Below, piece after piece: positions 18,788-40,098 of a DNA stretch of 64,000 bases. The stretch's first letter is position 1, and each line of letters starts with the position of its first letter. The notes beneath the pieces are model-generated. The model saw only the letters and a program-made list of their open reading frames with translations. It searched no databases and was not told where the DNA came from. This DNA comes from an uncultured Bacillales bacterium (lineage in GTDB: Bacteria > Bacillota_I > Bacilli_A > RFN20 > CAG-826): contig CALELS010000013.1 of assembly GCA_937902735.1 (NCBI GenBank), positions 134,523 to 198,522 of the forward strand. Direction: 5' to 3'. A program made the translations under genes and the position numbers.

Positions 18788-19346
18788 AGGCATGGATGGT
18801 GTTGGAAAGAGCACTGTCTGTCAACTTTTAGCAGAAAAGACTGGTTATACTTTTGTAACTAAGCCGCTTCATTATTTAACCGATTCCGATGATAGCAAAG
18901 ACTGGCCTAACTATTTCAGAGCCAGAGATATAGCTAACAATAGTGAAAATCGAGACTTTTCCGCATGGTTTTATGGCCTAGGCTTAATCTACAGCTACGA
19001 AAGATTCAAAAATCAAAACATCATCACGGATAGACATATCGTATCCAATTATTGTTGGAGTGGTGTTCCATCTAATATGGACATCTTTGATTTGCTTATT
19101 AAGAAACTTGGTGCGCCAACACTAACAGTGATTCTATATGCAAATGAAGATACAGTTCGTAGCAGACTCTTGAAAAGAGATCTAACAGATAGTGATTTAA
19201 AACGCGTTGATAAGACTGAAAAAGTCTATGAGAGAATGATAAGCTTCTGCGAGCTAAAACATTTCCCATACATCGTTATAGATACTTCAAAACTTAACCC
19301 AGAACAAATAGTGGACATCGTTCTTAAAAAGATGGAGGTGCTTTAA
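18768..19346 (+). CDS. P-loop nucleotide/nucleoside kinase (thymidylate-kinase/dNK-like)
   Basis: IEGMDGVGKSTV P-loop of the TMPK/dNK family. Confidence 0.65.
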   Translation: MNHISIEGMDGVGKSTVCQLLAEKTGYTFVTKPLHYLTDSDDSKDWPNYFRARDIANNSENRDFSAWFYGLGLIYSYERFKNQNIITDRHIVSNYCWSGVPSNMDIFDLLIKKLGAPTLTVILYANEDTVRSRLLKRDLTDSDLKRVDKTEKVYERMISFCELKHFPYIVIDTSKLNPEQIVDIVLKKMEVL

Positions 19347-22041: not shown

Positions 22042-23781
22042 CTATAAAACAACAACTTTATACGCTAATGTTTGCGTCTTGAATGGGTCCTTACATTTGA
22101 TGTATCCATCTAGGATTGATGGTAGTGCAGCAATGGCTTGTCTGCTCTCTCTAAATTTATCTAGAGTGATTTTATTTGATGCATCGATTGTCACTACAAT
22201 TTCATGTTTATCAACCGCGATAATACGGTAGAAGAAGCAGTCCATCATTTCTTTGGTAAGCATCTTATAAGTTATTTCTTTGCCTTTTAAGATATCAATC
22301 ATCTTGGATAAGCGGACTTCAGCTTCTTTTCTTAAGACGGTCTTATCTTGGACCCTTTGTATTTCTGCGACTACGTTTTGATAATCATTAACTAAATCTT
22401 GGTAACGTGTATCCAATGTCTTTCTCATCTCAACCGTATTAGCGGCTGCTCTTTCTTTTAACAAGAAGTCGATATCTCCATTAAGTTGGCTCTTCTTTTC
22501 GAGTAGCCTATTGAGTTCTTCGTCAACATCTGTTTCTTCTGATAACGTAGATGTTAAAGCTTTAGATAGTTTATTAAAGGCATTAGTGTTACCCATATAA
22601 AGTTTATTAATGATATCAGCACATGCTCTTAGAATCATGTTTTCACTAAGTGGTTTTGAGTGGCATCGATGGGTTTTAGTTGGATAGATATAAGTATTGC
22701 ATTGGAACATAATCTTTGGCTGTCCATCAGGATAACCTTTATACCATGTTCTTCTTTTATAGGATGCTCCACAGCCATAGCAGATAATCATGCCGCTTAA
22801 TGGATGTTTGGTGTTGTATTTACTTAAATCTCTATTCTTCCCAACTGCTTTAGCGGATTGAGACTTAAGTCTAGCTTGCACTCTATTCCATTGTTCTATA
22901 GAAATAATGGGTTCATGTGCTCCCTCGACTTTATACTTTTGTCTTTGACCTCTATTTTCTCTACGCTTATGGGTAAGATAATCAACGGTATAAGTCTTTT
23001 GGAGTAATAAGTCACCCATGTATTTTTCGTTTCTAAGCATTCCTAGAACAGTGGTGTTATTCCAATTGGTTCTACCAGTCATGGTTTTAATGCCACGCTT
23101 TTTAAGTTCTCTACATATGGTGTCTGGTCCCTTGCCTGAATCATATAAATCAAATATCAAACGAACCACTTTAGCTTGCTCTTCATTGATGACTAATTGC
23201 TTTTTATCTTCGCTTAGGTCATAGCCCATGAAGTTTGATGGTGCTACAAATGGCACACCTTCACGCATTTTCTTTTGTACGGTCCATGTAACGTTCTCTG
23301 AAATGTGTCTACTCTCTTCTTGAGCCATAGAGCTAATTATTGAAAACATGAATTCGTTTTTAGCATCAAAGGTGCTTAGTCTTTCATTATCAAAATAAAC
23401 TTCGACACCTATTTCTTTCAGTTCACGTATTGTCTGGATTGTTAAGACAGTGTTTCTTGCAAATCTTGATATCGACTTAACTAGGATTAAATCAATCTTG
23501 CCAGCTTTGGCATCTTTAATCATTTGATTGAAACCGTTTCTACCTTTCGCTGACGTGCCGGATATACCTTCATCTGCGTAAACCTTTACTAATTGATAAT
23601 CAGGATTCTCAAGGATCCTTTTGGTCCACTCTTCAATTTGGTTGTTAAAAGAAGTGGATTGCTCTTCGCTGTCAGTACTAACACGACAGTACGCCGCAAC
23701 GCGTTTTACTCGCGACTCAGATAGATCTTTATCAAATATGCTATCCACCTTTGTAGGAGCAATAATTTGTACATTATTCAT
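22042..23781 (-). CDS. Large serine recombinase (resolvase catalytic domain + recombinase domain + Zn ribbon + coiled coil)
   Basis: AAYCRVSTDSEEQ catalytic Ser motif; CYGCG...C zinc ribbon; ~579 aa. Confidence 0.9.
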   Translation of the reverse strand: MNNVQIIAPTKVDSIFDKDLSESRVKRVAAYCRVSTDSEEQSTSFNNQIEEWTKRILENPDYQLVKVYADEGISGTSAKGRNGFNQMIKDAKAGKIDLILVKSISRFARNTVLTIQTIRELKEIGVEVYFDNERLSTFDAKNEFMFSIISSMAQEESRHISENVTWTVQKKMREGVPFVAPSNFMGYDLSEDKKQLVINEEQAKVVRLIFDLYDSGKGPDTICRELKKRGIKTMTGRTNWNNTTVLGMLRNEKYMGDLLLQKTYTVDYLTHKRRENRGQRQKYKVEGAHEPIISIEQWNRVQARLKSQSAKAVGKNRDLSKYNTKHPLSGMIICYGCGASYKRRTWYKGYPDGQPKIMFQCNTYIYPTKTHRCHSKPLSENMILRACADIINKLYMGNTNAFNKLSKALTSTLSEETDVDEELNRLLEKKSQLNGDIDFLLKERAAANTVEMRKTLDTRYQDLVNDYQNVVAEIQRVQDKTVLRKEAEVRLSKMIDILKGKEITYKMLTKEMMDCFFYRIIAVDKHEIVVTIDASNKITLDKFRESRQAIAALPSILDGYIKCKDPFKTQTLAYKVVVL

Positions 23782-25025: not shown

Positions 25026-27224
25026 ATGAAGTTTTACAAATCCAATGTGTTGGGTATGCCTAGTAATACTAGATATCCTCACGAATTCGAAGCAAAACAA
25101 ACGACAAACAAAGAACAAATACGACAAATATTTAATAAGGACTATGTATGCGCTACATACAAGTATGACAAAAGGGACTGTGCTAACTTTCTAGTTTCAG
25201 ATTGTTTGGCTCTAGATTGTGACAACGACCATAGTGATGATCCAAATGCTTGGATTACTCCTGAGAACCTCATCAGTGAATTTGATAATGTGTTCATGAT
25301 CTTCCATATGTCTAGAAACAACATGAAAGAAAAAGATGGCAAAGCACCTAGACCTAAGTTTCATGTCTTTATGTCGATGGAACCAATTAAGAATCCAGAA
25401 GCATACGCGGAATTAAAAAGAAAAATTAATACCATATGGCCTTATTTTGACAAAAATGCAGAAGATGCTGCTCGTTTCTTCTTTGGCACTGAAGAACCTG
25501 AAGTTATTGTCTCTCCTGGTAAATTAACCATAAACGCTTATATCGACGCTTATGAAAAATTCGCCAATATGGACGATGATAATCAAGTCATTAAGTGTGG
25601 AGAAAGAAACTCAAAGTTATCTAAGTACGCTGCGATTATCTTAAAAAGATATGGCGATACTGAAGAAACCAGACAACTCTTCGAGGACAAAAATGAAAAA
25701 TGCTGTGAAGAACCACTTGAAGATTCTGAATTAAACCTCATTTGGAATAGTGCTCTTAAATTCTATAAAACAAAGATACTCACTAATCCGAATTATGTGA
25801 AACCAGATGAGTATGGTGGCGAATCCTATGTACCAAGTGACATGTCTGATGTTGGACAAGCATTAAAGTTTAGTGAGCATTATGGCTCTATTATCGCTTA
25901 TAACCCTGCGATGAAGTTTGTGGTCTATGACCAAAATAGATGGGTTGAAAGTGAAGAGCTTGCTCTAGCGGTCTTACATCAATTCACTAATAAACAAATC
26001 ATGGAAGCTTTTAAGCTCTATAGAGAAGCTAGTGATAGTGGTGATAAAGAAAGAATTGATAAGGCGAAAGCATATCTAAAATTTGTAACTAGCCGCAGAA
26101 ACTCTAACTATATCAACGCGACATTAAAACAAGCTACTCCTTATATAGGTGTTGATACTGAGAAATTCGATGCAGATCCGTTTCTCTTATCTACTCCTGA
26201 AGGTGTTTATGATTTAAGGATTGGTCCTTTTAGGCCAAAGCCACATAAACCAGAAGACTATATCACCAAAATGACTGCATGTTCCCCTTCTTTTAAAGGT
26301 AAGGACATCTGGGAGGAATCTTTAAATAAGATATTCTCAAACAATAAGGAATTAATTAGATACGTACAGCAGTGCTGTGGCTTAGCGGCAGTAGGAGCGG
26401 TATATGTTGAAATGATGCTTATTGCTCACGGTGAAGGCGGTAATGGTAAATCAACATTCTGGAACACCATCTTAAAAGTGTTCGGTGACTATGGTGGGAC
26501 TCTTAACAGTGACAATCTATTCGTAAATAACGGTAAATCATCTAGATTTGAAAAAGCGTTCCTAAAAGGAAAAAGACTAATCATTTCTAGCGAAAACGAA
26601 CAGGGAGCAAGGCTTAATGATGGAATGATCAAACAGCTATGTTCCACTGATAGAATCAAAGGTGAAAAGAAGTTCAAAGATGAGTTTGACTTTACTCCTT
26701 CTCATACAATGATTCTTTACACCAACCATTTGCCTAAAGTCACCACTGGTGATGATGGCACATGGCGTAGACTAAAAGTTATTCCGTTTACTAATAAGTT
26801 CACAGGCAATAACGACATTAAGAACTATTCCGAGTATCTATTTGAAAACTGTAAGGAATATATTCTATTTTGGGTCATGGAGGGTGCGAAAATTGTCATA
26901 GACAATAAATTCCACATCGAAGAGCCAAACGTCGTTCTAGAAGCTTGTAAACGATATAAGAATGAGAATGACTGGTTACATCAATTCATCAATGAGTGCT
27001 GTAAGCTCGGCGAAGATGAAAAAGTCAGCTCTGGAGAGCTTTATCTAAAGTATAGAGATTATGCTTGGCATAGAAATGAATATGTTCGTCCAAGTAATGA
27101 TTTCAAAGCAGCGATGGAGCTTGCTGGATTTAAAACGACTCATCCTCATAACAAAGTTATCTATCATGGCATCCGATTACTTACTGATAATGAATTGGGT
27201 GTCGAGGATGACTTTCTAAGTTAA
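25026..27224 (+). CDS. Phage/plasmid primase-helicase (P4/D5 family, SF3 NTPase C-terminal domain)
   Basis: LIAHGEGGNGKSTFWNTI Walker A, typical of P4-family primase C-terminal domains; 732 aa. Confidence 0.8.
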   Translation: MKFYKSNVLGMPSNTRYPHEFEAKQTTNKEQIRQIFNKDYVCATYKYDKRDCANFLVSDCLALDCDNDHSDDPNAWITPENLISEFDNVFMIFHMSRNNMKEKDGKAPRPKFHVFMSMEPIKNPEAYAELKRKINTIWPYFDKNAEDAARFFFGTEEPEVIVSPGKLTINAYIDAYEKFANMDDDNQVIKCGERNSKLSKYAAIILKRYGDTEETRQLFEDKNEKCCEEPLEDSELNLIWNSALKFYKTKILTNPNYVKPDEYGGESYVPSDMSDVGQALKFSEHYGSIIAYNPAMKFVVYDQNRWVESEELALAVLHQFTNKQIMEAFKLYREASDSGDKERIDKAKAYLKFVTSRRNSNYINATLKQATPYIGVDTEKFDADPFLLSTPEGVYDLRIGPFRPKPHKPEDYITKMTACSPSFKGKDIWEESLNKIFSNNKELIRYVQQCCGLAAVGAVYVEMMLIAHGEGGNGKSTFWNTILKVFGDYGGTLNSDNLFVNNGKSSRFEKAFLKGKRLIISSENEQGARLNDGMIKQLCSTDRIKGEKKFKDEFDFTPSHTMILYTNHLPKVTTGDDGTWRRLKVIPFTNKFTGNNDIKNYSEYLFENCKEYILFWVMEGAKIVIDNKFHIEEPNVVLEACKRYKNENDWLHQFINECCKLGEDEKVSSGELYLKYRDYAWHRNEYVRPSNDFKAAMELAGFKTTHPHNKVIYHGIRLLTDNELGVEDDFLS

Positions 27225-28041: not shown

Positions 28042-31000
28042 ATGATAAACGATTCTTATTACAATGAATTTACTCAAAGAATTTTATTCGAGACCATTTT
28101 AAGTGAATTAAAAGAAAGAGGTGGCACAACATCTGGATACGGTACACTCTTTGAAAAATTCTGCCAAAAAATAATATTAACCTCGCCTTTCTTTGCTGAT
28201 GATGTTGTTAATGTTTGGTTATGGAAAGACTTTCCTGGTAACGGCGGACTTCACGATAACGGAATTGATATTGTTGTTTTGGATAAAAATAATTCTTTTT
28301 GGGCTGTTCAATGTAAATTTTACGATAAAGATGCATCGGTAAACAAATCAGATATTGATTCCTTTATTGCAGCGACAATTCGCGAATTTGTCTTTGAAGG
28401 GAGAACATATAATTTCTCACAAAGATATGTATTTTCAACAACCGAAAGTGTGAGCCAAAACGCTTCAGGCATGTTTGTCTTATTTGGGCCTGAGTCAATC
28501 TTCCAATGTGGTATTGATTGGGAACACTTTTCACTTGATGAAGTGGACAACATGCAAGCTCTCGGTAAAAAATCACCGAAGCCACATCAAGAAACAGCTA
28601 TTGAAAAAGTGTTGGAAGGATTTAAAACGAATGATCGTGGAAGGCTCATCATGGCTTGTGGCACAGGAAAAACATATACCTCATTAAAAATTGTCGAAAA
28701 GTATATTGAATTATTAAAATCAAATAGTGCTAAAAACATTCTCTATCTAGTACCTTCTATTCCTTTGCTTTCCCAAACGATTTTAGAGTGGAAAACGCAG
28801 ACATTATTGCATAATTGCAATATGTTTGGTGTGTGTTCAGATGAAACAGCTGGTCAAGATAGGAGGACAAGAAATCGTGATGAGCTGACTGTTCAAATGC
28901 CAATTCCTGCTACAACAGACTCTTCGAAAATCAAGGAAGAATTGGATAAAGGAACTGCAAATGTTAATTTCTTTTTTTCCACATACCAATCAATTGATGT
29001 TGTTAACAAAGTTCAAAATGATTGTGATATAGAATTCGATATGGTTATCTGCGACGAGGCGCATAGAACTATTGGTGCTTTCAAAGAAGAAGATGAAGAT
29101 ATTTCGTGTTTTATCAAAGTTCATGATAAGGACTTTATTAAAGCTTCAAAAAGACTTTATATGACAGCGACGGAGAAGATATATTCTTCTAATGCTAAAG
29201 CAGATGCTGAAGAAGGTGGCTGGAACGTTTATTCAATGGATGATGAATCGATTTATGGTCCTGAATTCTATTATTTATCTTTCGGTGATGCTGTAACAAA
29301 ACAACTATTGACTGATTATAGATTGTTGGTATTAAACATCAGAAAATCGGATGTAGCCAATCTAAGATTACCAGAATCTGCATTTTCAAATTTGGATGAT
29401 GCCTCACGCATAATTGGTGCGCTAACTGCTTTATCAAAAATCCCTCCAGAATATAATCCTGAGGAATTCGAACAAGACCCAAAACCAATGAAAAGAGTTG
29501 TCGCTTTCTGTTCTACTATAGCGCAAGCCGATTCAATTGCTCAATCCTTTAATCACTTAGCTGATAAAAAGTGTTTGGGTGAAGAATATATGAGAGATCA
29601 AGGCTTTGTTATTCCTCACGCAAAATTAATAACTGGTCAAGATAACACCAAAGAAAAAAATAAGAAACTCAATTGGCTGAGAGACGAAATTGAAGATGGT
29701 GAATGTAGAATTCTTACCAATGCTAGATGTCTCTCGGAGGGAGTTGATGTTCCGTCTCTAGACTCTGTTGTTTTTATGGCCAAGAAAAGATCACAAGTTG
29801 ACATTATTCAAGCTGTTGGAAGAGTCATGAGAAAGTTCGGGAGCGGTAGCGAGAAAAAATATGGTTACATTGTCATTCCTGTAGTGATTAGCGATGAAAG
29901 AATGACTGATAAAACATTATCTGCTAACGAAGACTACAAAGTGGTTTGGCAAGTAGTTCAAGCTTTAAGATCACACGACGAAAGACTAGATACAGAAATA
30001 AATAAGGTGGGTGTAACAGGACGTTTACCTCAAAGCATTTGCATTTTAAATACATTCATACCACCAATATCAAGAAAAGGACACAAAGTCAGTTCTTTGA
30101 GACAGGAGCAAGAAGAAGGCTTGGATACAGATAACCCAGTCGCTTCTGCCGGCGATTATGTTGTGAGAATCCCATCTGATGAAGAATTAAAAGAGAATGA
30201 AAAAACTTTTAGCGCCCAACTTGTTAAACATTGTGGGAACAGGTTGTATTGGGAAGACTGGTCAAAAAATATTGGCGATGTAACTAATAATGTTGCTTTA
30301 AAAATTAAATCTCAAATTACTGACTCACCTAGTGCAAACCGTTCATTTCAAAAATTTGTTAAGGATTTAAGAAAACTTTTAAATCCAAGTGTGTCAGAAG
30401 AAGATTGTGTTAGCATGCTTTCTGAGCACATTGTCACTCTCCCGGTATTAAAGAGCATTTTTTTAGAAAACACATTAATTGATAACAATCCAATTACCAT
30501 AATTATGGAATCAATGGTTAAAAGATTAAGTGATTTAAATTCAGAATTAGAAGAACTTGAGCCATTTTATCAATCTGTAAGAAAAACCGTAGAGGGTGTA
30601 ACAAGTTCCGAAGGAAGACAAGAAATCATTAGAAAACTGTTTGAAAAATTCTTCCAATATGCTCTTCCACAATCAGCTGAAAAATTTGGAATTGTTTACA
30701 CTCCGGTTGAGATAGTTGATTTTATTATCAACTCAGTCAAATATACTTTAAACGCTTCTTTTGAAGCAAATTTAACAGATAAAAACATCAAAATACTAGA
30801 TCCTTTTACCGGTACAGGAACATTTGTTGTTCGATTGCTGGATATTCTAAAAGAATCAGCAGTTTCTGAAGAAGATTTTAAATATAAATACTTAAATGAC
30901 ATCTGGTGCAATGAAATAATGCTCCTTTCATACTACATTGCGTTAATTAATATTGAGGATGCCTACACTAGAAACAACGGTTCGATTCTACCCTTTGAGC

Positions 31001-32889
31001 ATGCGGTTTTAACTGACACATTCCAATTGGCTGAGAAGAGAAAAAAGAAGTATTTCTCTACAGTTTTGTTTGAAGAACAAGAATTCACTGTTGCTAATCA
31101 AAAAGCAAGAGAAGAAGATGAGGATGATATAAGAATTATAATTGGTAATCCTCCTTATTCGGCTGGCCAAAAGAGCGCAAACGATAAAAACAAAAATGAT
31201 AAATATGACAATCTGGATGGCCGAATTTCCGACACTTATTTAAAAAATACGAGTGTTGTTGCAGCTAAGTCTATGTATGATTCATATGTTAGGGCTTTTA
31301 GATGGGCCTCTGACAGAATATCTGATAACGGGATTATTTCTTTCGTTTCCAATGGCTCGTATATAGACAGTGTTGCTTTTAATGGTTTTAGAAGAGAACT
31401 TGTGAAAGAATTTAATTCCGTTTACGTGTTCAATCTTCGAGGGAACCAAAGAACACAAGGAGAAGTTTCGAGAAAAGAGGGCGGTAAGATATTTGGGAGC
31501 GGCTCTAGGAATACTATTGCAATCATTGTTCTCGTGAAAAAACACAATCAAGCTTTTGATGGTTTTATTCACTACTATGATATAGGTGATTATTTATCTA
31601 GGGAGGAAAAACTCGATATTATTAGAAATTTCAAAAGCATAGAAAATATTCCGTGGGAGAAGATTACCCCTGACGATAACAACGACTGGATTAATAAAAA
31701 AGATACATCATTTACAAAGTTCACTGTTATAGCTAATAAAAAGGGAAAAGAAGAATCTGTTTTTGGCAGTCGTGTATCATTGGGTTGCTCTACTGCTCGT
31801 GATTCTTGGGTTTACAATTTTTCAAAGAAAACCTTAATAGAAAACGTTGATGAATTTATAGATTTTTATAACAGTCAAAGACAAGCTTTCTTTGCTGCGA
31901 AAGCAAAAAATTCAAAATTGATAGCAGAAGAATTCTTAACCTTTGATAAAACAAAGATTACATGGGGCAGAGATATACTTAAAAGATTGAAAAAGAATTC
32001 GCCTATACAAAATAATAACGATATAAGAGTTGTTATGTATCGTCCTTTCGTAAAGAAATATCTTAATTTTAACACCGATTTAATCAGCGATCCTTCTTTG
32101 GTAGACAGTATATTTCCTAGAGGCAGCAATAATGTTTGTATCGCATTAGCAGCGCCCCCATTAACTCAGGAGTTCTCTTGTATGGTTTCGAATTGTATCT
32201 GTGACTATCATTTATTAGGTCAGACACAAATGATGCCTTTGTTCTGGAACGAAGAAAGCAGTAGCGACAGCATTTCTATTTTTGATGACACCACGATAGA
32301 TGGGATCAGCGATGAGTTTTTGGCAAAATGCCGAGCTAAATTTAGCGATAATTCGTTAACTCACAGGGATATATTTGCTTATGTCTATGGTCTTTTACAC
32401 TCAAAACAATACAAAGAAAAATACAAAAATAACCTTTCTAAAGAATTGCCGCGCATACCTCTCTTGGAGGGATATAAAAAGTATATTGACATTGGTAACA
32501 AGCTTATTGACTTGCATATTAATTATGAAACCCTTAAACCTACTGATGTAGTGAAAACAAAAATCAAAAAAGATAATTACAAAATAACAACCATCAAATT
32601 CCAAAACAAAAATAAGGATGCCATCGTTTTTAATGACGATATTTTGATTTATAACATCCCTGCAAAAATTTATGATTATAAATTAAATGGTCGCAATCCA
32701 ATTGAATGGGTCTTAGATCAATATCAATATTTCGTCGATCCTTCCTCTCAGAACATTGACGACCCAAACCTTTACGATGAGAAACAAAATGGAAAGTATA
32801 TTTTTAATTTGATTCACTCACTTATTACTATGTCTTTAAAAACAATTGAATTGGCAGAGAGCCTTCCAGATTACAAAGAAATTGATTAG
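28042..32889 (+). CDS. Type ISP (LlaGI/LlaBIII-like) single-polypeptide restriction-modification enzyme: Mrr-like nuclease + SF2 translocase + gamma N6-adenine MTase + TRD
   Basis: Mrr_cat motif DNGIDIVV...VQCKFY. Helicase motifs ACGTGKTYT (I), VICDEAHRT (II), MTATEK (III), LSEGVDVPSLD (V) and QAVGRVMR (VI). MTase motifs LDPFTGTGTF (I) and IIGNPPYSAGQ (IV). 1615 aa. Confidence 0.8.
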   Translation: MINDSYYNEFTQRILFETILSELKERGGTTSGYGTLFEKFCQKIILTSPFFADDVVNVWLWKDFPGNGGLHDNGIDIVVLDKNNSFWAVQCKFYDKDASVNKSDIDSFIAATIREFVFEGRTYNFSQRYVFSTTESVSQNASGMFVLFGPESIFQCGIDWEHFSLDEVDNMQALGKKSPKPHQETAIEKVLEGFKTNDRGRLIMACGTGKTYTSLKIVEKYIELLKSNSAKNILYLVPSIPLLSQTILEWKTQTLLHNCNMFGVCSDETAGQDRRTRNRDELTVQMPIPATTDSSKIKEELDKGTANVNFFFSTYQSIDVVNKVQNDCDIEFDMVICDEAHRTIGAFKEEDEDISCFIKVHDKDFIKASKRLYMTATEKIYSSNAKADAEEGGWNVYSMDDESIYGPEFYYLSFGDAVTKQLLTDYRLLVLNIRKSDVANLRLPESAFSNLDDASRIIGALTALSKIPPEYNPEEFEQDPKPMKRVVAFCSTIAQADSIAQSFNHLADKKCLGEEYMRDQGFVIPHAKLITGQDNTKEKNKKLNWLRDEIEDGECRILTNARCLSEGVDVPSLDSVVFMAKKRSQVDIIQAVGRVMRKFGSGSEKKYGYIVIPVVISDERMTDKTLSANEDYKVVWQVVQALRSHDERLDTEINKVGVTGRLPQSICILNTFIPPISRKGHKVSSLRQEQEEGLDTDNPVASAGDYVVRIPSDEELKENEKTFSAQLVKHCGNRLYWEDWSKNIGDVTNNVALKIKSQITDSPSANRSFQKFVKDLRKLLNPSVSEEDCVSMLSEHIVTLPVLKSIFLENTLIDNNPITIIMESMVKRLSDLNSELEELEPFYQSVRKTVEGVTSSEGRQEIIRKLFEKFFQYALPQSAEKFGIVYTPVEIVDFIINSVKYTLNASFEANLTDKNIKILDPFTGTGTFVVRLLDILKESAVSEEDFKYKYLNDIWCNEIMLLSYYIALINIEDAYTRNNGSILPFEHAVLTDTFQLAEKRKKKYFSTVLFEEQEFTVANQKAREEDEDDIRIIIGNPPYSAGQKSANDKNKNDKYDNLDGRISDTYLKNTSVVAAKSMYDSYVRAFRWASDRISDNGIISFVSNGSYIDSVAFNGFRRELVKEFNSVYVFNLRGNQRTQGEVSRKEGGKIFGSGSRNTIAIIVLVKKHNQAFDGFIHYYDIGDYLSREEKLDIIRNFKSIENIPWEKITPDDNNDWINKKDTSFTKFTVIANKKGKEESVFGSRVSLGCSTARDSWVYNFSKKTLIENVDEFIDFYNSQRQAFFAAKAKNSKLIAEEFLTFDKTKITWGRDILKRLKKNSPIQNNNDIRVVMYRPFVKKYLNFNTDLISDPSLVDSIFPRGSNNVCIALAAPPLTQEFSCMVSNCICDYHLLGQTQMMPLFWNEESSSDSISIFDDTTIDGISDEFLAKCRAKFSDNSLTHRDIFAYVYGLLHSKQYKEKYKNNLSKELPRIPLLEGYKKYIDIGNKLIDLHINYETLKPTDVVKTKIKKDNYKITTIKFQNKNKDAIVFNDDILIYNIPAKIYDYKLNGRNPIEWVLDQYQYFVDPSSQNIDDPNLYDEKQNGKYIFNLIHSLITMSLKTIELAESLPDYKEID

Positions 32890-32898
32890 GGAGATTTT

Positions 32899-33630
32899 AT
32901 GGAAAAAGAATTGAAGTGCCCTATTTGTGGACAACCGACCAGAATCTATATGGGAAACGCTCGTAAAGATTTGCTTTGCGCAAAGCATGCAGAAGCTTTA
33001 AAAGCTGGCAAGATTGAAATAAATGATAAAGGTCTATTCATTGATAAAGAAACCGGCAAAGTTTTAAACATGGACTACATTGAACCCAAAAAAGAAGAAA
33101 AGAAGCAAGAGGGCGTAGTTAAATGCATTGCCTGTGGCAAAGAAACTAAACCAGGATTCTTATTCTGCGGTGGTTGCTATAAGAAATATGCAGATAAGAA
33201 ATTGCTTGTAGAAATAACAAATTGCCGCGACATAACAATTCTCGATGATTCATACGAAGGCAAATTTACATGTACTGACGGCCATATTGTTAAATCCAAA
33301 TCAGAAATGATTATCGATAACTGGCTATTTGACCACAACATTGCTCATGCTTATGAAAAGAAACTTCCAATTGATGCGGATGAAAATCATGATTTGCATC
33401 CAGATTTTTGCCTGCCAGGTTATGGAGACGACCCAGATGACATTTATGTAGAATACTGGGGATATAACGAAAGCAATATTAAATATACTGAATCAAAAAA
33501 TTACAAAATGAAAATATATAAGCAGTTAAAAGTAACTGTTATTTGTTTACAAGAAAAAGACATCATGGATATCAATGCCTCTTTAAGTAGAAAACTTAAG
33601 TTTTATAAAAAAGGCACCATTAACGAATAA
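32899..33630 (+). CDS. Two Zn-ribbons (CPICG...C, CIACG...CGGC) + C-terminal nuclease-like domain with PDF...EYWG motif
   Basis: IIDNWLFDHNIAHAYEKK...HPDFCLP...IYVEYWGYNE aligns with residues ~430-520 of the downstream helicase (IANWYFINGIDYIYEAPYEK...MPDFRLP...IYHEHYGINK). Confidence 0.55.
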   Translation: MEKELKCPICGQPTRIYMGNARKDLLCAKHAEALKAGKIEINDKGLFIDKETGKVLNMDYIEPKKEEKKQEGVVKCIACGKETKPGFLFCGGCYKKYADKKLLVEITNCRDITILDDSYEGKFTCTDGHIVKSKSEMIIDNWLFDHNIAHAYEKKLPIDADENHDLHPDFCLPGYGDDPDDIYVEYWGYNESNIKYTESKNYKMKIYKQLKVTVICLQEKDIMDINASLSRKLKFYKKGTINE

Positions 33631-33635
33631 TTCGC

Positions 33636-36629
33636 ATGGGATTATTTGGGGATATTAAGAATTGGATTGTTAATGCTTGGACCGTAAGCAATCGCTTTGA
33701 TCCTTATTTTAATAATTTCAATCGGGACTTAAGCTATCTAAAAATTATCAAGGAAGATATAGACCCTGAAATTACAAAGATTTATAACCAGATTAAGGCC
33801 ACAGCTCCTCAAAAATATGCGAAACAAATAGCCCAATATGAAGGAGCGATTGTTAAGATTAGAGACCACAATAATAAAGTTAATAGAATTAACGATGGGA
33901 TGAGTGGCTTTGATTATGACAAAATCTTGGATAACCCGCATCACTTTGATTGCTCCTTAATTTCGAAGTATGTTGAAATAGCTAATTTAATTAAAACCTT
34001 CCCCAAATATGGCTCACCGTATGATGAGTTTGTTGAACATGTTGATGATATACAGAAGTTTTATTACCAGTTAGTAGAAGAATATGATGCTGTTCTTGAA
34101 TACAACGAATTGGCAACGATAGATTCGTCTCTAGGGTATATCGATTCAAGGCACAAAAACCAAATTATTGGAAAAAGAAACACTCTAAAAAATAAGATAT
34201 CTGCTCACGGTAAAACGTTTTATATTTGGAGCAATAATTCAGTAGTTACCAATGCAATTAAAAAACACAACGAAGTGTTTATAGAAGAGAACAAATCAAA
34301 TCCATTATTTAATTCTATTAATGAAAGAAGTTTAGACTCTGAACAAAGAGAAAGTGTTCTGACTGACGAATCTTCAACTTTGGTAGTAGCTGGTGCTGGC
34401 AGTGGGAAAACATTAACAATATGTGGCAAGGTTGAGTATCTTTTAAAAGTTCAAAAGGTGAACCCTTCTGATATTCTTTTACTTTCTTATTCTAAGAAAT
34501 CCGCTGAAGATCTTCAAAAAAAGGTAAGCAAAATTGATAGCAGACTAACCGTGGGCACATTTCATAAAATAGGTCTTGAAGTTTTAAAAGAAACCCAAAA
34601 CAAAACCTTCATGGTCGAAGATCAATATAAGGCAATTATTGAAGCATATTTTAGAGAAGAGATGAGAAAAAGGCCTCATATGCTTCAGACGATTTTAACT
34701 TATTATGGTTTGTATTTAACATCTGATAAGCATGATAAAAAATATAAAAATGAAGGTGAAATGTACGAAGACTTAAGAAAGTCCGATTTTTCAACATTAA
34801 GAACCCAACTTCTTTCATTAACAAACGATATTAATAAACGTGAAACAATTAAAAAAGAGTTAGTAAAGAGCTTTGAAGAAATGGCCATTGCTAACTGGTA
34901 TTTTATTAATGGTATAGATTATATCTATGAAGCCCCATATGAAAAAGATGTCTCCACCGCAGACAAAAGACAATACATGCCAGATTTTCGCTTGCCTAAG
35001 TACAAAATCTATCATGAACATTATGGAATTAATAAACAAGGCAGAGCAGACCAATTTGAAGGTCAAGAAGCAGCGATGTATGTTGCTAATATGCAATGGA
35101 AGAGGACTATTCACCAGCAGAACAACACGGTTTGTATTGAAACCTATTCGTATGAATTTGATGATGGTACTGTCTTCGATAAGTTGGAAAAGGAACTCAA
35201 GAGCAGAGGCGTGATTTTTAAGCCACTTGAGGATGATCAAATATTCAATGCTCTAGAGTCAATTTATGAAGGCCAGGCTTTTAAGTCGTTTATTAACTTG
35301 ATTAGAACATTTCTAAGTCTTTATAAGGCGGTTTATAGAAGTGCTGATGGTTTTGAGGAATTAAAGAAATTTGAGTTCGCAAATAGATATGAAAGAAAGC
35401 GCGCAGATTTTTTCTTAGATATTGTCAAAGACGTTTATCTTTACTACATGGAGTATTTACGTAGAGAGGACAAAATTGACTTTGACGATATGATTCTTCA
35501 ATCAACAATTGATTTAGACAAGACAGATAAATTCAAATACAAATACATTATTGTTGATGAGTTCCAAGATATTTCTGTGAGCAGGATGAAATTCCTTAAA
35601 AAGCTCATTTCTCACGGAGATTCAAAACTATTTGCCGTTGGTGATGACTGGCAGGCTATTTATAGATTCTCTGGATGTGATTTGAATATATTCTTAAAAT
35701 TCCCAGATTACTTTGGTGAATCAGCAATTACTAAAATAACAACCACTCATAGAAATTCGCAGGAACTTCAAGATATTGCTGGACCATTTATCAAGGCTAA
35801 TCCAGAACAATTTGATAAGAAGATTAACTCTGCTCGTCACCTAGAACACCCTGTTCAGATTATGTATTACTCCGATAAGAAATATTATGCCTTTTTGGAT
35901 GTTCTTAAAGAAATTGCAAAGATTAATAAAGAAGCAAAGGTATTGATTTTAGGCAGAAATAATAAGGATTTTGAGGATATTGCATTAGACACCAGAGTGT
36001 ATATTGATTTCAGAGAATCTAATGAAACCAGAACAGTAGTTAAGGTGAGAGATTATCCTAAAATGCAATTATCTTATAGTACAGTTCATGGTTCAAAAGG
36101 TTTAGAAGAAGACTATGTCATTATTATTAACGCAGATGATTCTAGGCTTGGATTCCCAAATAAAATGGAAGATGATGAACTTCTTGATATGGTTTTGAGT
36201 TCAAAAAGTGGCTACGAATATGCTGAAGAAAGACGTCTGTGGTATGTTGCTTTGACCAGAACAAGAAATTATACATACATAATCGCAAACAATGAAAACC
36301 CTTCTATCTTTGTAAAAGAAATAGAAAATCAATGTTTAGTTATGAATCCAAATATGGAAGTAAGCCATGAAGGAGAAATATCTTGTCCTCGCTGCAAATC
36401 CGGTAGATTAGTTTTAAGAGCTAATGAAAGTGATGGCAGCAAATTCTATGGTTGCTCTAACTATCCATATTGCAACTATTCCATTAATGATTTTAGGGCC
36501 GTCAAAAGAAATAAACGTTGTCCTCATTGCGGAGATATCATGGTCTTCAAAAAGGGCCCATATGGAGCTTTTTACGGTTGCCACAATTATCCTAGATGTA
36601 AGCACAAAGAGGAGTATGATGGCAAATAG
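33636..36629 (+). CDS. UvrD/PcrA-like SF1 helicase with a nuclease-like (PDF...EHYG) insertion domain and two C-terminal topoisomerase-type C4 zinc fingers
   Basis: AGAGSGKT (I), IIVDEFQDIS (II), GDDWQAIYRFSG (III), TVHGSKGLEEDYVIII (V), YVALTRTRN (VI); CPRCKSG...YGCSNYPYC and CPHCGD...YGCHNYPRC. Confidence 0.85.
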   Translation: MGLFGDIKNWIVNAWTVSNRFDPYFNNFNRDLSYLKIIKEDIDPEITKIYNQIKATAPQKYAKQIAQYEGAIVKIRDHNNKVNRINDGMSGFDYDKILDNPHHFDCSLISKYVEIANLIKTFPKYGSPYDEFVEHVDDIQKFYYQLVEEYDAVLEYNELATIDSSLGYIDSRHKNQIIGKRNTLKNKISAHGKTFYIWSNNSVVTNAIKKHNEVFIEENKSNPLFNSINERSLDSEQRESVLTDESSTLVVAGAGSGKTLTICGKVEYLLKVQKVNPSDILLLSYSKKSAEDLQKKVSKIDSRLTVGTFHKIGLEVLKETQNKTFMVEDQYKAIIEAYFREEMRKRPHMLQTILTYYGLYLTSDKHDKKYKNEGEMYEDLRKSDFSTLRTQLLSLTNDINKRETIKKELVKSFEEMAIANWYFINGIDYIYEAPYEKDVSTADKRQYMPDFRLPKYKIYHEHYGINKQGRADQFEGQEAAMYVANMQWKRTIHQQNNTVCIETYSYEFDDGTVFDKLEKELKSRGVIFKPLEDDQIFNALESIYEGQAFKSFINLIRTFLSLYKAVYRSADGFEELKKFEFANRYERKRADFFLDIVKDVYLYYMEYLRREDKIDFDDMILQSTIDLDKTDKFKYKYIIVDEFQDISVSRMKFLKKLISHGDSKLFAVGDDWQAIYRFSGCDLNIFLKFPDYFGESAITKITTTHRNSQELQDIAGPFIKANPEQFDKKINSARHLEHPVQIMYYSDKKYYAFLDVLKEIAKINKEAKVLILGRNNKDFEDIALDTRVYIDFRESNETRTVVKVRDYPKMQLSYSTVHGSKGLEEDYVIIINADDSRLGFPNKMEDDELLDMVLSSKSGYEYAEERRLWYVALTRTRNYTYIIANNENPSIFVKEIENQCLVMNPNMEVSHEGEISCPRCKSGRLVLRANESDGSKFYGCSNYPYCNYSINDFRAVKRNKRCPHCGDIMVFKKGPYGAFYGCHNYPRCKHKEEYDGK

Positions 36630-36793
36630 GCAAAAATGCTGACAAACTGTTAAAACGAAGAAAATAGAAAAAAATTTAATATCAACTAACTCTTTGAGTT
36701 AAAAAATATTAATAAAATTTGTTTGGAAAAAAATAGAAAAAGTCCCCTACGGAAATACTTTGTATTTCCTTATATATAATAGGAGGACTATTT

Positions 36794-37204
36794 ATGAAAA
36801 CAGTCAAAAATATGAACAGCGAAAAGCTCTCTTCAGATCTCAAAGAATCGTGGAGAATCGAAGAAAAACTACTGAAAACAAACGATTCACTAACCGATGC
36901 AGAAATTCTGTTTTTAAAGACTAGAGCAGAAGAAGGCGTGCCCCTCGGTGAATTTGACTATGGTCTTTATTATTTGTTGGTGCAGAACGATGAAAAAACT
37001 GCAGAGGAATGGTGGAGTAAATTCTTTTATCACAGTAATGGCTTTGGCCTTTGGAAGGCTAGTGGCATATTTGCTTATTTAGGCGATCAGTATTACGACT
37101 GGTCTATGAGATGCTTGCGAAGAAGCGCTTGGAGGCAGTTTAAGCTTTCTAAGATGATGCTCGCCGATATGAAGAAAAATCCATATAAATTTCCAGAAGC
37201 ATAA
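36794..37204 (+). CDS. Hypothetical protein
   Basis: AGGAGGACTATTT-ATG RBS; no motif. Confidence 0.45.
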   Translation: MKTVKNMNSEKLSSDLKESWRIEEKLLKTNDSLTDAEILFLKTRAEEGVPLGEFDYGLYYLLVQNDEKTAEEWWSKFFYHSNGFGLWKASGIFAYLGDQYYDWSMRCLRRSAWRQFKLSKMMLADMKKNPYKFPEA

Positions 37205-37457
37205 AAGTATTAGGTGGCGTAAATTGCCACTTTTCTTTTAACCACCATCGTGATATGATTTTAAGGTCAAAAATGCCACTTTTATATAATACTTTGTATT
37301 ATATAAGTCCAAGGTCTTGCACCCTGTATCAGGGAATATGTTAGAAGTTTATTGCATTGCAATACTTTTTTAAAAATGCAGATTATTTTGTAATAAAAAT
37401 AAGCACATATTGATAACGTGCACAAAAAATGATAAAATTTGGGCACGAGGTAAATAT

Positions 37458-38513
37458 ATGCACAAGTTACCGCTTGATTATAACTATAACGATATTGATG
37501 TTTTAAAAGCATTAAATTCTGCAAACAATAAGATTGGAGAATTGAATGGCATTATCAATTTATTACCGAACCCGAACATTATTTTAAATGCAGTTATATT
37601 GGGTGAAGCTAAAGAGTCCAGTGAAATCGAAAACATAGTAACTACATTTGATGAAATCTTTAAAGAAATAACGTTGAAAGTTAATAATACTGCCTCTAAA
37701 GAAGTAGTGAATTATCGACAAGCTATTTTAAGCGGCTATAAATTTATTAAGGATAATGGTTTTATTTCTTCAAGAATGTTAATTAATATCCATCACATTA
37801 TTGAACCAGATGTTGGGGGTATTAGAAAAATACCAGGTACAGTTGTTAAGAATACCAAAACTGGTGAAATACTACATACTCCTCCTCAAAACGAAGAAGA
37901 AATTAGAGATTATTTGTCTAATTTGGAAAAATACATTAATTATGATGATTTAGAAGATGTTGATCCAATTATTAAAATGGCAATTATTCATTATCAATTT
38001 GAATCTATTCATCCTTTTCATGATGGGAACGGAAGAACTGGTAGGATGCTTAATGTTTTATATTTAGTGCTTAAAAATAAAATAAGCCTCCCTATCTTAT
38101 ATTTGTCAAAATATATTAATTTCACCAAAGATGAATATTATAAGCATCTCTATAACATTAGGTTAGATAATAAATATATTAAGGATTATTTACTTTACAT
38201 GATTGAAGGCGTTAATAAGATGTCATCTTTTACTATTGATTTCATTAAATCTTTTAGAAATCTGATGGATGACGCTTCAGAGCTAATTAAAGAAAAATGC
38301 CCAAAAATCTATTCTCATGAACTTGTTGAATATCTATTCTATGACTTTTATACAAAAAACGAATATTTAAGAGACGCTCTCAACATTTCTAGAAATACTG
38401 CATCTAAATATTTGAAAGAATTAGAAGAAGCTGGAGTTCTTATTTCTGAAATGGTTGGTAAAGAAAAAATATTTAAAAACGCTTATTTATATTCTCTTAT
38501 CGAAAAATGGTGA
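37458..38513 (+). CDS. Fic-family protein (AMPylase-type motif)
   Basis: HPFHDGNGRTGR Fic motif. Start moved to the ATG at 37458, which has a GAGGT RBS. Confidence 0.85.
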   Translation: MHKLPLDYNYNDIDVLKALNSANNKIGELNGIINLLPNPNIILNAVILGEAKESSEIENIVTTFDEIFKEITLKVNNTASKEVVNYRQAILSGYKFIKDNGFISSRMLINIHHIIEPDVGGIRKIPGTVVKNTKTGEILHTPPQNEEEIRDYLSNLEKYINYDDLEDVDPIIKMAIIHYQFESIHPFHDGNGRTGRMLNVLYLVLKNKISLPILYLSKYINFTKDEYYKHLYNIRLDNKYIKDYLLYMIEGVNKMSSFTIDFIKSFRNLMDDASELIKEKCPKIYSHELVEYLFYDFYTKNEYLRDALNISRNTASKYLKELEEAGVLISEMVGKEKIFKNAYLYSLIEKW

Positions 38514-38837
38514 TAAAAAGAAATGCTTTTATTGCATTTCTCAAAAACATAGTTAAGCGACACAAAACAGTGACTAAAAAATGCCCAAAAACATAGTAGA
38601 CCAACCTATAATTTGGCTTTGTTTTCACAATCTTGGATATCATTTTTCAGCATGTACCGTGTACTCTTATTGTTTTTATGTTCAATAAGGAACTCTTTTT
38701 ATAGGTTAAACCTATAAGAATGAAAGAACTATTGAGCTAATTTGCTTAAAATATACCTATTTTTCGGCGAAATCTAAAAATATACCAACTTACAAGTAAA
38801 ACTTTACATATATGTCTAGTTGTGCTTAAATTATGGT

Positions 38838-39572
38838 ATGAAAACTCTACCAATAATCTTTAAATATGAAGATATAAAGGTATTTTATCCAAATGTAGCA
38901 GCCTTTTATGCTTTTGTTGATCGCGCTTCAAAGCGTGGAGAGATTAAACAAATAAAAAGAGGGATATATGCACTAGTAAATCCATCTACCGGAAATATCT
39001 TTGCAACTAAATTCCAAATAGCAAGCCATCTATTTAATGACGCTTATTTTTCATATCATGAGGCTCTAGAATACTATGGTTTAGCTAATCAATCTTTTGT
39101 TTCCTATTTCACTTATTTAACCCATGTTTATGTTGATGATGTGGTTTTTGATGACATAATATATCATTCAAAAAAGAGCGGATATGATTTAGAAATTCTT
39201 AACCGTATGAAAGAAGAAGATATTCGCGTTGTTTCTTTAGAACGCGCAATAGTGGATTCGATAGATTCTCCTTCTCTTGCGGGTGGTCTTGAAGAAATAG
39301 AATACGCTCTTAGTAATTGTCGTAGACTTAAAATAGATAAGATCGAGATGCTTTTAAAGCATTATGATAAATCATTCTTATATCAGAAAGCCGGATATTT
39401 ATTTGAAAAACATTTTGGTGAAAAAATACCAGAATCGTTTTATAAATTATGTTTATCTAAGATAGGCAACAAGATTAATTATTTTGAATCTAAAGTTGGC
39501 CACTCTAAATTAATACTTAAGTGGAAATTAATGGTGCCATTAGAAAGGAGCATGCCTGATGAATTATACTAG
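38838..39572 (+). CDS. AbiEi-family antitoxin/transcriptional regulator (type IV TA)
   Basis: N-terminal wHTH pattern ASKRGEIKQIKRGIYALVNP (l..G.l.rv.rGvY) typical of AbiEi. Confidence 0.65.
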   Translation: MKTLPIIFKYEDIKVFYPNVAAFYAFVDRASKRGEIKQIKRGIYALVNPSTGNIFATKFQIASHLFNDAYFSYHEALEYYGLANQSFVSYFTYLTHVYVDDVVFDDIIYHSKKSGYDLEILNRMKEEDIRVVSLERAIVDSIDSPSLAGGLEEIEYALSNCRRLKIDKIEMLLKHYDKSFLYQKAGYLFEKHFGEKIPESFYKLCLSKIGNKINYFESKVGHSKLILKWKLMVPLERSMPDELY

Positions 39573-40098
39573 AAAATATATTGAATCATTAAACAAAGAC
39601 AACAATTTCATTCAAAACAATCTTGAAAAAGTAGTTAGGCTTTTAGACGTTCTTATATTTATATCCACTGAATTAGATCCATATGGGGACAAGCTTGTTC
39701 TTAAAGGCGGTACCGCCATTAATTTGATGTATACCAATTTAGCAAGATTAAGCGTTGATATTGATTTAGATTATATTGGTTCACTTGATAAAGAAAAAGC
39801 TAGCAAAGATAGAGATATAATCATGGACGCTTTGGATAATTATATGCTTGGCGTAGGCTATGACATTTCTTCTAAATCTAGAGGAAGTGTTATTCTAGCC
39901 AGTAGAACATATTCATTTACCAATGCTTCTCACAATAAAGACAATATTAAAGTCGAAATCAATTTCATTGATAGAATCCACATTAGTCAAAGCATTAGAA
40001 AGAAAATTACTTATTTTGAAAAAGAAGTAATGGTGCATACTCTTCCTTCTCCGTACTATTGTGGACTAAGAAGTATGAATCATTACTGGTTTTATTGA
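39559..40098 (+). CDS. AbiEii/AbiGii-family nucleotidyltransferase toxin, apparently 3'-truncated (179 aa vs ~280-300 typical)
   Basis: AAAGGAG RBS. LKGGTAINLMY...RLSVDIDLDY matches DUF1814 (lkGGTal...RfSeDiDf). The ORF runs into a reverse-orientation duplicated segment at about 40090. Confidence 0.6.
   Translation: MNYTRKYIESLNKDNNFIQNNLEKVVRLLDVLIFISTELDPYGDKLVLKGGTAINLMYTNLARLSVDIDLDYIGSLDKEKASKDRDIIMDALDNYMLGVGYDISSKSRGSVILASRTYSFTNASHNKDNIKVEINFIDRIHISQSIRKKITYFEKEVMVHTLPSPYYCGLRSMNHYWFY

Follow-up and report, generated by a model that had tools for sequence, protein, structure and literature searches.

Two adjacent genes in the genome of an uncultured Bacillales bacterium each encode a protein with the same nuclease-like module. 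Do these genes form one system in which each part depends on the other, or do they represent two separate defence genes that stand side by side? Both are located in a stretch of 64,000 nucleotides (contig CALELS010000013.1), referred to here as the window. The first gene (32899..33630, plus strand) encodes a 243-aa protein that has two zinc ribbons and, at its C-terminus, a Vsr-like nuclease module. This assignment is based on the ORF, its ribosome-binding site (GGGAG, 6 nt 5' of the ATG), homologues, an AF2 model, and PADLOC. The second gene (33636..36629, plus strand) encodes a 997-aa SF1A helicase related to UvrD and helicase IV, as identified through Pfam, NCBIfam, AF2, and Foldseek.

The two genes are co-directional and 5 nt apart. 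The small gene starts 9 nt past the stop of the gene directly upstream (28042..32889, plus strand), which has Pfam and PADLOC matches and encodes a complete 1615-aa Type ISP restriction-modification enzyme containing Mrr_cat_2, ResIII, ISP_coupler, N6_Mtase, and Type_ISP_C (6e-88) domains. An earlier, sequence-only reading of the window had given the ORF positions, the gap, and the location right behind the Type ISP gene exactly. A promoter and terminator scan performed no better than on shuffled sequence and was used solely for the absence of hairpins between the three genes; it placed no terminator-like hairpin between them and no terminator-like site before 36751. The Type ISP gene is probably in the same transcription unit as the small gene and the helicase gene, and such a gene is also found upstream of the pair at loci L096 and L111. 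It is considered context, not a demonstrated functional partner. A 136-aa ORF (36794-37204) was considered as a third gene of the system. It was dropped because it is not conserved beyond the closest relatives (L091, L095/L100) and no family matches it.

The small protein possesses two zinc sites, as the sequence-only reading had proposed. Site 1 (C7, C10, C27, and H30; 32917..32988, plus strand) and ribbon 2 (C76, C79, C90, and C93; 33124..33177, plus strand) are each invariant in 47 homologues, and the second has a weak DZR_2 match at aa 75-97. The Vsr-like PD-(D/E)xK module follows (33247..33627, plus strand, aa 117-243), with a putative active site of E136, E153, D169 (PDF), E185 (ExWG), and K203. 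The AF2 model of the protein has a pLDDT of 85.9. Searches of PDB sequences with the protein and with its profile gave nothing beyond chance zinc-finger matches. The small gene could have been a pseudogene or a fragment duplicated from the helicase gene. This was excluded because the protein is independently conserved along its full length in 302 homologue clusters and is under strong purifying selection (dN ~0.09, dS saturated).

The helicase starts with an all-helical domain (33636..34325, plus strand, aa 1-230) that has no family match; its helices span residues 2-219 in the AF2 model (pLDDT 84.3). It belongs to the SF1A UvrD/Rep/PcrA group. Pfam matches are to UvrD-helicase (3.8e-39) and UvrD_C (9e-11), and Foldseek ranks UvrD, PcrA, and Rep highest (E 1e-14 to UvrD and PcrA). 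The Walker A motif AGAGSGKT (34389..34412, plus strand, aa 252-259) and motif II DEFQD (35556..35570, plus strand, aa 641-645) are invariant in 34 homologues; GDDWQAIYRF, VALTR, and all of the SF1 motifs are invariant as well. At the C-terminus are two topoisomerase-type C4 zinc ribbons (36375..36614, plus strand, aa 914-993), which had been recognized earlier and are matched in two stretches by Zn_ribbon_Top1 (7.2e-20). Their cysteines (917, 920, 940, 946, 962, 965, 982, and 988) are all invariant. The gene is also under strong purifying selection, with a dN/dS of ~0.03 against its homologue at locus L092.

The second copy of the module (34857..35183, plus strand, aa 408-516) lies within the helicase core, as had been claimed, and the alignments place it in domain 1B. 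PcrA aligns to aa 232-319 and 585-745, so that the 1B region is ~265 aa in this helicase and ~58 aa in PcrA. Escherichia coli HelD (helicase IV), the best named relative, aligns to aa 204-327 and 608-898, with 36% identity over the 2A/2B half and 29% over the start of 1A. However, HelD has ~110 aa where this helicase has ~281 aa, contains neither the nuclease module nor topoisomerase-type zinc ribbons, and has a fixed chromosomal context. The DNA helicase IV equivalog model (NCBIfam PRK11054) matched with 317 bits in two stretches, below its curated cut-off of 543. The gene is not a core HelD or PcrA orthologue, in agreement with the variable islands and plasmids on which its relatives are found.

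The homology of the two copies, which share ~110 aa, was confirmed by two methods. BLASTP aligned residues 130-190 of the small protein with 409-466 of the helicase (38% identity, E 1e-6). With hhalign, a profile of 25 small-protein homologues matched the helicase with a probability of 93% (E 3e-7, 87 columns, 129-220 against 408-506). The order of helices and strands is the same in both AF2 models. In a joint alignment of the two families, VKS, E136, Y152-E153, P168-D169-F170, Y183, E185, G188, Y196, and K203 are invariant, and the conserved helicase residues E415, E432, D450 (PDF), E461 (EHYG), and K489 correspond to E136, E153, D169, E185, and K203. The module family is large, with 8240 cluster representatives. 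Its best 150 members comprise 100 small proteins and 49 UvrD-type helicases, most of the helicases with Zn_ribbon_Top1.

The module had been described as a Vsr/DUF559/DUF2726-like PD-(D/E)xK variant, and this holds for the fold only. It has a Vsr/DUF559-like PD-(D/E)xK fold, with an alpha-beta-beta-beta-alpha-beta core that can be superposed on Vsr, DUF559, and I-Bth0305I. At the sequence level, a Pfam search with each module alone gave no match to DUF2726, DUF559, Vsr, MTES_1575, or any other family at E up to 10; DUF2726 was found at 1e-16 in partner proteins at other loci in the same scan. An hhalign comparison with an alignment of the partner DUF2726 domains gave a probability of 0.2%. The family profile found no module in E. 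coli HelD, a 312-aa DUF2726 protein, or a 902-aa helicase.

The positions equivalent to Vsr H64 and H69 are W/Y and N in the module (PMC3239194), and the ExDG motif of DUF559-type proteins becomes E-x-(W/Y)-G. Because the H64 equivalent is W or Y, it is uncertain by what chemistry the module would cut, and its role could be one of binding. Both modules might be catalytically dead DNA- or lesion-binding domains built on a co-opted fold, with the small protein serving as a regulator or sensor. This appears very unlikely. The PD-(D/E)xK-type acidic residues and the lysine are invariant in two families that are only ~33% identical to each other, and the ExDG motif stands at the same place in DUF559-type relatives.

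Another possibility is a selfish origin, with the small gene as a free-standing gene of the homing endonuclease type that inserts beside conserved genes and comes to lie next to helicases only through its mobility. Several observations make this highly improbable. The module does not retain the H or the second D of the EDxHD motif (PMC3239194), and zinc ribbons, not NUMODs, are found at the N-terminus, unlike in I-Bth0305I. There is no intron or intein context, and no two loci were found that are alike except that one has the gene and the other a precisely empty site. Conservation of the small protein is stronger than that of the helicase. A phage-borne homing endonuclease was ruled out because the gene hardly occurs in phage and viral collections, with one weak match among 50,697 phage records and one distant match among 2.9 million viral contigs.

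The shared module connects both proteins to candidates that are already in PADLOC, and the pair cannot be called undescribed as first proposed. Through the module, each of the 47 homologues of the small protein is matched by three PADLOC models, PDC-S69, PDC-S68, and HEAT_CxxC_PD-DEXK. The small protein itself matches PDC-S69 with an E of 1.3e-26 (2.5e-27 for the best of the 47), although the match spans only profile positions 175-284 of 289 and leaves the N-terminal zinc-ribbon half unmatched. The helicase insert matches PDC-S68 and PDC-S69 as well. The PDC-S68 module, however, is C-terminal in a protein of ~1200 aa and not within UvrD domain 1B. The PDC models are computational candidates only (PMC11514479). 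A literature search found no paper that deals with PDC-S69, with a defence role of helicase IV-type genes, or with UvrD helicases that bear topoisomerase zinc fingers and act in defence.

Among known defence genes, Hhe offers the closest logic. Hhe was reportedly described by Gao et al. in 2020 as a single-gene defence with a helicase and a Vsr endonuclease domain. It protects against phage, and mutation of its active site abolishes this protection (bioRxiv 10.1101/2022.06.16.496414). Like Hhe, the helicase described here is a defence-island gene that combines a helicase and a Vsr-fold nuclease in one polypeptide. Hhe differs in its size of ~1900 aa, its other type of helicase, and its terminal nuclease, whereas this protein has a UvrD/helicase IV-type SF1A motor, a nuclease within 1B, topoisomerase-type zinc ribbons, and sometimes a paralogous nuclease gene alongside. 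The resemblance is one of architectural logic only. The Hhe model is not among the 25 PADLOC matches listed for the helicase, out of 39 matching families. Gabija and Hachiman also have a nuclease gene beside a helicase gene in defence islands, and GajB is UvrD-like. However, neither the small protein nor its neighbours match the OLD/TOPRIM GajA, and the GajB models match no more than the generic core of UvrD, in 2-3 stretches. No DUF1837 HamA is present, HamB is SF2 whereas this helicase is SF1A, and no Hachiman model is among the PADLOC matches listed for either protein. In contrast to both systems, a nuclease is built into the helicase here, and its pairing with the small gene is optional. 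By architecture, the pair may be considered a variant of known helicase and Vsr-like nuclease defence genes, with an optional paralogous putative nuclease in trans.

The sequence-only reading had favored a two-gene system. Such a system could be an obligate complex, for example a heterodimeric nuclease formed by the cis and trans module copies, in which neither protein would work alone. The 5-nt gap and the lack of a terminator between the genes are consistent with this. In addition, the adjacency is repeated in diverged lineages (L014, L015, L095, L096, L111, L112, and L115) with small-protein identities of 40-86%, and in every case the nuclease domain of the partner falls in the same fold class. 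The distribution of the genes, however, makes an obligate unit unlikely. In a set of one genome per species with ~70 full-length small-gene loci, ~85% of the loci have no adjoining helicase, a helicase IV-type neighbour is present at 3, and an AAA_11/12 helicase at 4. Among 20 non-redundant helicase loci, the small gene is adjacent at 6, within 3.3 kb at 1, represented by a remnant only at 1, and without a trace at 12. These 12 include L092, where a 96%-identical helicase has a Type III restriction-modification system upstream in place of the small gene. One lineage (L093/L094/L144/L145), seen in several samples, contains a decayed small gene with an in-frame stop (YVEYWG to FIMYR*) before an intact helicase. 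The pairing is facultative, each gene often occurring without the other.

The small gene also has other partners. It adjoins an unrelated SF1 AAA_11/AAA_12 helicase fused to DUF2726, in either gene order, at L009, L013, L020, L024, and L025, and a 312-aa zinc-ribbon DUF2726 protein at L002 and L022. Small proteins that share more than 80% identity have different partners, a further point against an obligate pair. A tentative and rather doubtful alternative is that the small protein is a promiscuous trans subunit that docks on the Vsr-fold nuclease domain of the adjacent helicase-nuclease. The heterodimer so formed would contain two active sites and would turn a single-strand nicking enzyme into a double-strand cutter. 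The three partner types would be the helicase IV type with the insert, the AAA_11/12 type with a C-terminal DUF2726, and the stand-alone zinc-ribbon DUF2726 protein.

The genes that surround the pair point to defence. The host is a gut or rumen bacterium, and the carrier an integrative mobile element with a serine recombinase and a D5-type primase. In addition to these and the Type ISP gene, the window contains SoFic, an AbiEii fragment, Fic, and Schlafen/AlbA_2, which bears out the defence-island setting noted from the sequence. Both genes are found in variable defence islands and on plasmids. Helicase homologues are neighbours of Type III restriction-modification genes (L092 and L144), PLD-SNF2-DUF3427 (L097 and L098), GIY-YIG/Schlafen helicases (L115 and L087), and a DEAD/MZB protein with a PIN protein (L146). 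On plasmids, they neighbour DUF262 pairs and a ThiF/multiubiquitin pair. The small gene at other loci is surrounded by Cas9, PLD-SNF2, and STAND-metallophosphatase genes. The helicase family spans Firmicutes, Acinetobacter, Vibrio, and haloarchaea.

Alternatively, the helicase-nuclease, alone or together with the small protein, could function in DNA repair or recombination, or help the mobile element to replicate, integrate, or transfer. The nearest named family is DNA helicase IV, relatives are carried on plasmids, and the primase and serine recombinase lie 6 kb from the pair, with a primase also near L095 and L144. This role is improbable, however, since the neighbours vary by locus and are overwhelmingly of the restriction and abortive-infection type, the primase linkage is confined to close relatives, and the helicase differs from helicase IV in its score and in the insert and zinc ribbons that E. 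coli HelD does not have.

The reading preferred here, at a probability of about 55%, is that these are two independently mobile defence-island genes with a probable role in degrading invading DNA, present at this locus in one probable operon with the Type ISP gene. One would encode a self-contained helicase-nuclease and the other an optional small nuclease that enhances it. The 997-aa protein would be an ATP-driven SF1A motor of the UvrD/helicase IV type with a Vsr-like PD-(D/E)xK nuclease inside 1B. In UvrD and PcrA, domain 1B faces the DNA junction. By analogy, the nuclease would be positioned next to the unwinding junction, and the C-terminal zinc ribbons probably help the helicase to hold DNA. 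The helicase may load on foreign DNA at ends, nicks, or replication intermediates, translocate, and cut the unwound DNA in an Hhe-like manner. The 243-aa protein likely binds DNA through zinc ribbons, to which the same type of nuclease is fused, and it belongs to a PDC-S69-like family usually encoded alone. Beside a helicase-nuclease, it would most likely add a second cutting activity on helicase-processed DNA, as an optional and not an essential subunit. Some points weigh against this reading. The adjacency could partly reflect island shuffling and not cooperation, helicase IV relatives also function in recombination and repair, and the module has neither the two Vsr histidines nor a sequence-level link to DUF2726, DUF559, or Vsr.

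The findings describe a large family of UvrD-type helicases with a built-in predicted nuclease that has so far been annotated only as "UvrD-helicase domain-containing protein". They also describe a module family that escapes every Pfam model, and provide a first functional hypothesis for the PADLOC candidates PDC-S68 and PDC-S69. A nuclease inside 1B, beside the unwinding junction, would couple translocation and cutting in another way than the terminal nucleases of RecB, AddA, Hhe, and Nhi. The optional but recurrent pairing with two unrelated helicase-nuclease families is a tractable case of the mixing and matching of defence modules. If the small protein does act as a trans subunit, it would be a portable upgrade, passed between defence helicases that are not related to one another.

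Three co-directional and closely spaced genes are found in the window. A complete Type ISP restriction-modification enzyme of 1615 amino acids is encoded at 28042-32889 (+). The small gene (32899-33630, +; 243 amino acids) starts 9 nt past its stop codon and is preceded by a GGGAG ribosome-binding site, and the helicase gene (33636-36629, +; 997 amino acids) starts 5 nt past the small gene. In a scan that overall did no better than on shuffled sequence, no terminator-like hairpin was found between the three genes and the first ones past the helicase were at 36751 and 37212. Between these hairpins is the next ORF (36794-37204, +; 136 amino acids), for which no family match was found. It is kept in the closest relatives only, L091 (95%) and L095/L100 (79%).

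The surroundings are rich in defence genes. Upstream of these are a large serine recombinase (22042-23781, -) and a D5_N/DUF5906 primase (25026-27224, +), and their presence suggests that the block in its entirety is a mobile element of the integrative type. The defence region also contains SoFic (37410-38513), a truncated AbiEii (39559-40098, +), a Fic protein, an AAA_14/DUF4143 ATPase, and a Schlafen/AlbA_2 protein. The AbiEii match is limited to positions 8-127 of the 238 in the profile. The ORF that gives it has 179 amino acids and overlaps one of 250 amino acids that has no Pfam match; together (38820-40098, +) they resemble an AbiE toxin-antitoxin pair that has been truncated. L016, a locus from another genome, holds a copy of 38654-39207 that is 92% identical. 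An 817-aa protein (19346-21799, +) has an unusual combination of BspA-type leucine-rich repeats (LRR_5, 6e-52) and an N6_N4 DNA methylase domain (2e-34).

The small protein and the helicase do share a module, as the sequence-only reading had claimed. BLASTP matched residues 130-190 of the small protein to 409-466 of the helicase (38% identity, E 1e-6), and hhalign placed a profile of 25 small-protein homologues on helicase residues 408-506 (probability 93%, E 3e-7). A joint alignment puts the identity between the two families at only about 33%. Invariant across both are VKS, E136, I139, F144, Y152-E153, P168-D169-F170, Y183, E185, G188, Y196, and K203 (small-protein numbering). In the AF2 models (pLDDT 85.9 for the small protein and 84.3 for the helicase) the order of helices and strands is identical for both modules. 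The proposed Vsr/DUF559-like PD-(D/E)xK type is thus borne out for the predicted fold. Lower-ranked fold matches include RAP domains, TnsA, Bax1, and many restriction enzymes.

At the sequence level the module is a family of its own. A Pfam scan with E up to 10 gave no match to it, and the same scan found DUF2726 at 1e-16 in the partner proteins of other loci; profile-profile comparison of the module with these DUF2726 domains was negative. By eye, its PDF...IY(I/V)E(H/Y)(W/Y)G pattern resembles the DF...IEVDGxxH layout of DUF559 and DUF2726, but with an aromatic residue in place of Asp/His. When compared with the residue roles in Vsr (PMC3239194), it also has no counterpart of Vsr His69. Nuclease catalysis is plausible because an invariant E, E, D, E, K set remains. 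The claim that the system is undescribed did not hold for the module, which is matched by the PADLOC models PDC-S69 (1.3e-26), PDC-S68, and HEAT_CxxC_PD-DEXK. All 47 small-protein homologues tested matched PDC-S69, in a match confined to the C-terminal module of that model, and the helicase insert also matches PDC-S68 and PDC-S69. PDC entries in PADLOC are candidates only (PMC11514479).

The helicase belongs to SF1A and every motif is invariant in 34 homologues. By fold it is most similar to UvrD, PcrA, and Rep. It is not an ordinary HelD or PcrA ortholog. The nearest named family is DNA helicase IV, where it scores 317 bits, below the curated cut-off of 543. Escherichia coli HelD aligns to residues 204-327 and 608-898 only, has about 110 amino acids where the window's helicase has about 281, and gave no match to the module profile. 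Compared with PcrA, the helicase has an extra segment of about 207 amino acids within domain 1B, so that the module, correctly placed before between motifs Ia and II, is more exactly inside 1B. The two topoisomerase-type zinc fingers proposed at the C-terminus are two copies of Zn_ribbon_Top1, with all eight cysteines invariant.

The architecture of a UvrD helicase with the module is widespread. A module-profile search of 1.84 billion cluster representatives (E up to 1e-3) returned 8240 proteins. The best 150 of these comprise 100 small proteins, mostly with CxxC pairs ahead of the module, and 49 that are helicase-sized. Ten longer proteins, nine of them helicase-sized, were scanned for domains; all are UvrD helicases except one protein of 422 amino acids, and a topoisomerase zinc ribbon was found in seven of the nine UvrD helicases. 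On plasmids of Acinetobacter, Vibrio, Halorhabdus, and Paenisporosarcina, relatives carry no annotation beyond "UvrD-helicase domain-containing protein".

Neither gene reads as a pseudogene. The small protein is conserved over its full length in 302 homologue clusters, down to about 45% identity, and the residues of its module and of its two zinc sites are invariant. Its dN is about 0.09 with dS saturated; together with the full-length conservation, this argues against a duplicated fragment of the helicase gene. For the helicase, comparison with L092 gave a dN of 0.020 and a dS of 0.67.

The pairing of the two genes is recurrent but facultative only. A metagenome scan for the helicase yielded 20 non-redundant loci with sufficient upstream sequence. 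The small gene is directly upstream in six of them (L091, L095, L096, L111, L112, and L115) and 3.3 kb downstream in one (L097). This adjacency is far above chance because the small gene is rare. One lineage (L093, L094, L144, and L145) retains just a degraded piece of it, residues 183-236, in which there is an in-frame stop and the catalytic strand is lost; in L144 (7800-7961) this piece lies in the spacer of 207 nt that separates a Type III res gene from the intact helicase. No trace of the small gene was found in 12 of the 20 loci. These include L092, whose helicase is 96% identical to that of the window and where DNA similarity begins exactly at the helicase start codon. The small gene is dispensable for retaining the helicase, and the helicase without it is evidently not toxic. 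The recurrent adjacency of the proposed two-gene system stands, and an obligate unit is unlikely. The Type ISP gene is directly upstream of the pair in the window, L096 (147-2522), and L111 (36-2216), with an extra 131-aa ORF in between in the latter two, and this may be a recurrent three-gene arrangement. In L087 (7509-13934) a distant 311-aa module protein is followed by a Schlafen-type helicase and then a module-bearing helicase IV-type helicase; the module-bearing genes are close together yet not adjacent.

The small gene was also surveyed in one genome per species, giving 80 loci, most of which come from MAGs of gut and rumen bacteria in Bacilli, Clostridia, and Christensenellales. About 60 of these had neither a helicase nor a DUF2726 partner. 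A helicase IV-type gene follows it in L014, L015, and, fragmented, L027. An unrelated AAA_11/AAA_12 SF1 helicase of about 900 amino acids with C-terminal DUF2726 adjoins it in L013 (2144-4849), L020, L024, L025, and, by contig look-up, L009 (10767-13475), in varying gene order. This helicase matches the Mokosh MkoA/MkoC and PDC-S37 helicase models generically only. In L022 and L002 the next gene encodes a zinc-ribbon DUF2726 protein of 312 amino acids. In L002 (10001-11734) this gene is 6 nt downstream of the small-protein homologue, both proteins having zinc ribbons ahead of a Vsr-fold nuclease, and the remaining context is housekeeping genes. Other neighbours include Cas9, a PLD-SNF2 protein, a SWIM protein, and a metallophosphatase-STAND protein. 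Small proteins that share over 80% identity adjoin different partners, which argues against a tightly co-evolved complex. It seems unlikely that the small protein is a portable trans-subunit that docks onto helicase or DUF2726 nuclease partners.

The neighbourhood of the helicase homologues supports a defence function. It includes Type III R-M genes with MC2 and CTD6 conflict-system domains close by, PLD-SNF2-DUF3427 enzymes, GIY-YIG/Schlafen helicases, a DEAD/MZB protein and a PIN protein, DUF262 pairs, a ThiF/multiubiquitin pair, and Type ISP (the window, L096, and L111). The family of either gene was essentially absent from the phage genomes and viral contigs searched. Gabija and Hachiman were considered and rejected, the former because no GajA was found at the locus and the latter because the helicase is SF1 and no DUF1837 protein was found among the PADLOC matches listed. 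In function the closest parallel is Hhe, which joins a helicase and a Vsr nuclease in one protein and whose phage protection depends on the nuclease active site (bioRxiv 10.1101/2022.06.16.496414).

The helicase is probably a self-contained helicase-nuclease, with a motor that would translocate along DNA. Its 1B nuclease would sit where UvrD and PcrA touch the junction, and the zinc ribbons would add grip on DNA. The small protein would be a zinc-ribbon DNA binder with the same type of nuclease. Its gene normally stands alone and, when adjacent, the small protein probably adds a second cut. The observation behind the sequence-only reading holds and its interpretation holds in part. Judging from sequence, this appears to be a defence gene of a known kind in a new architecture, with a paralogue in trans, and it is of interest that this trans-encoded paralogue is optional.
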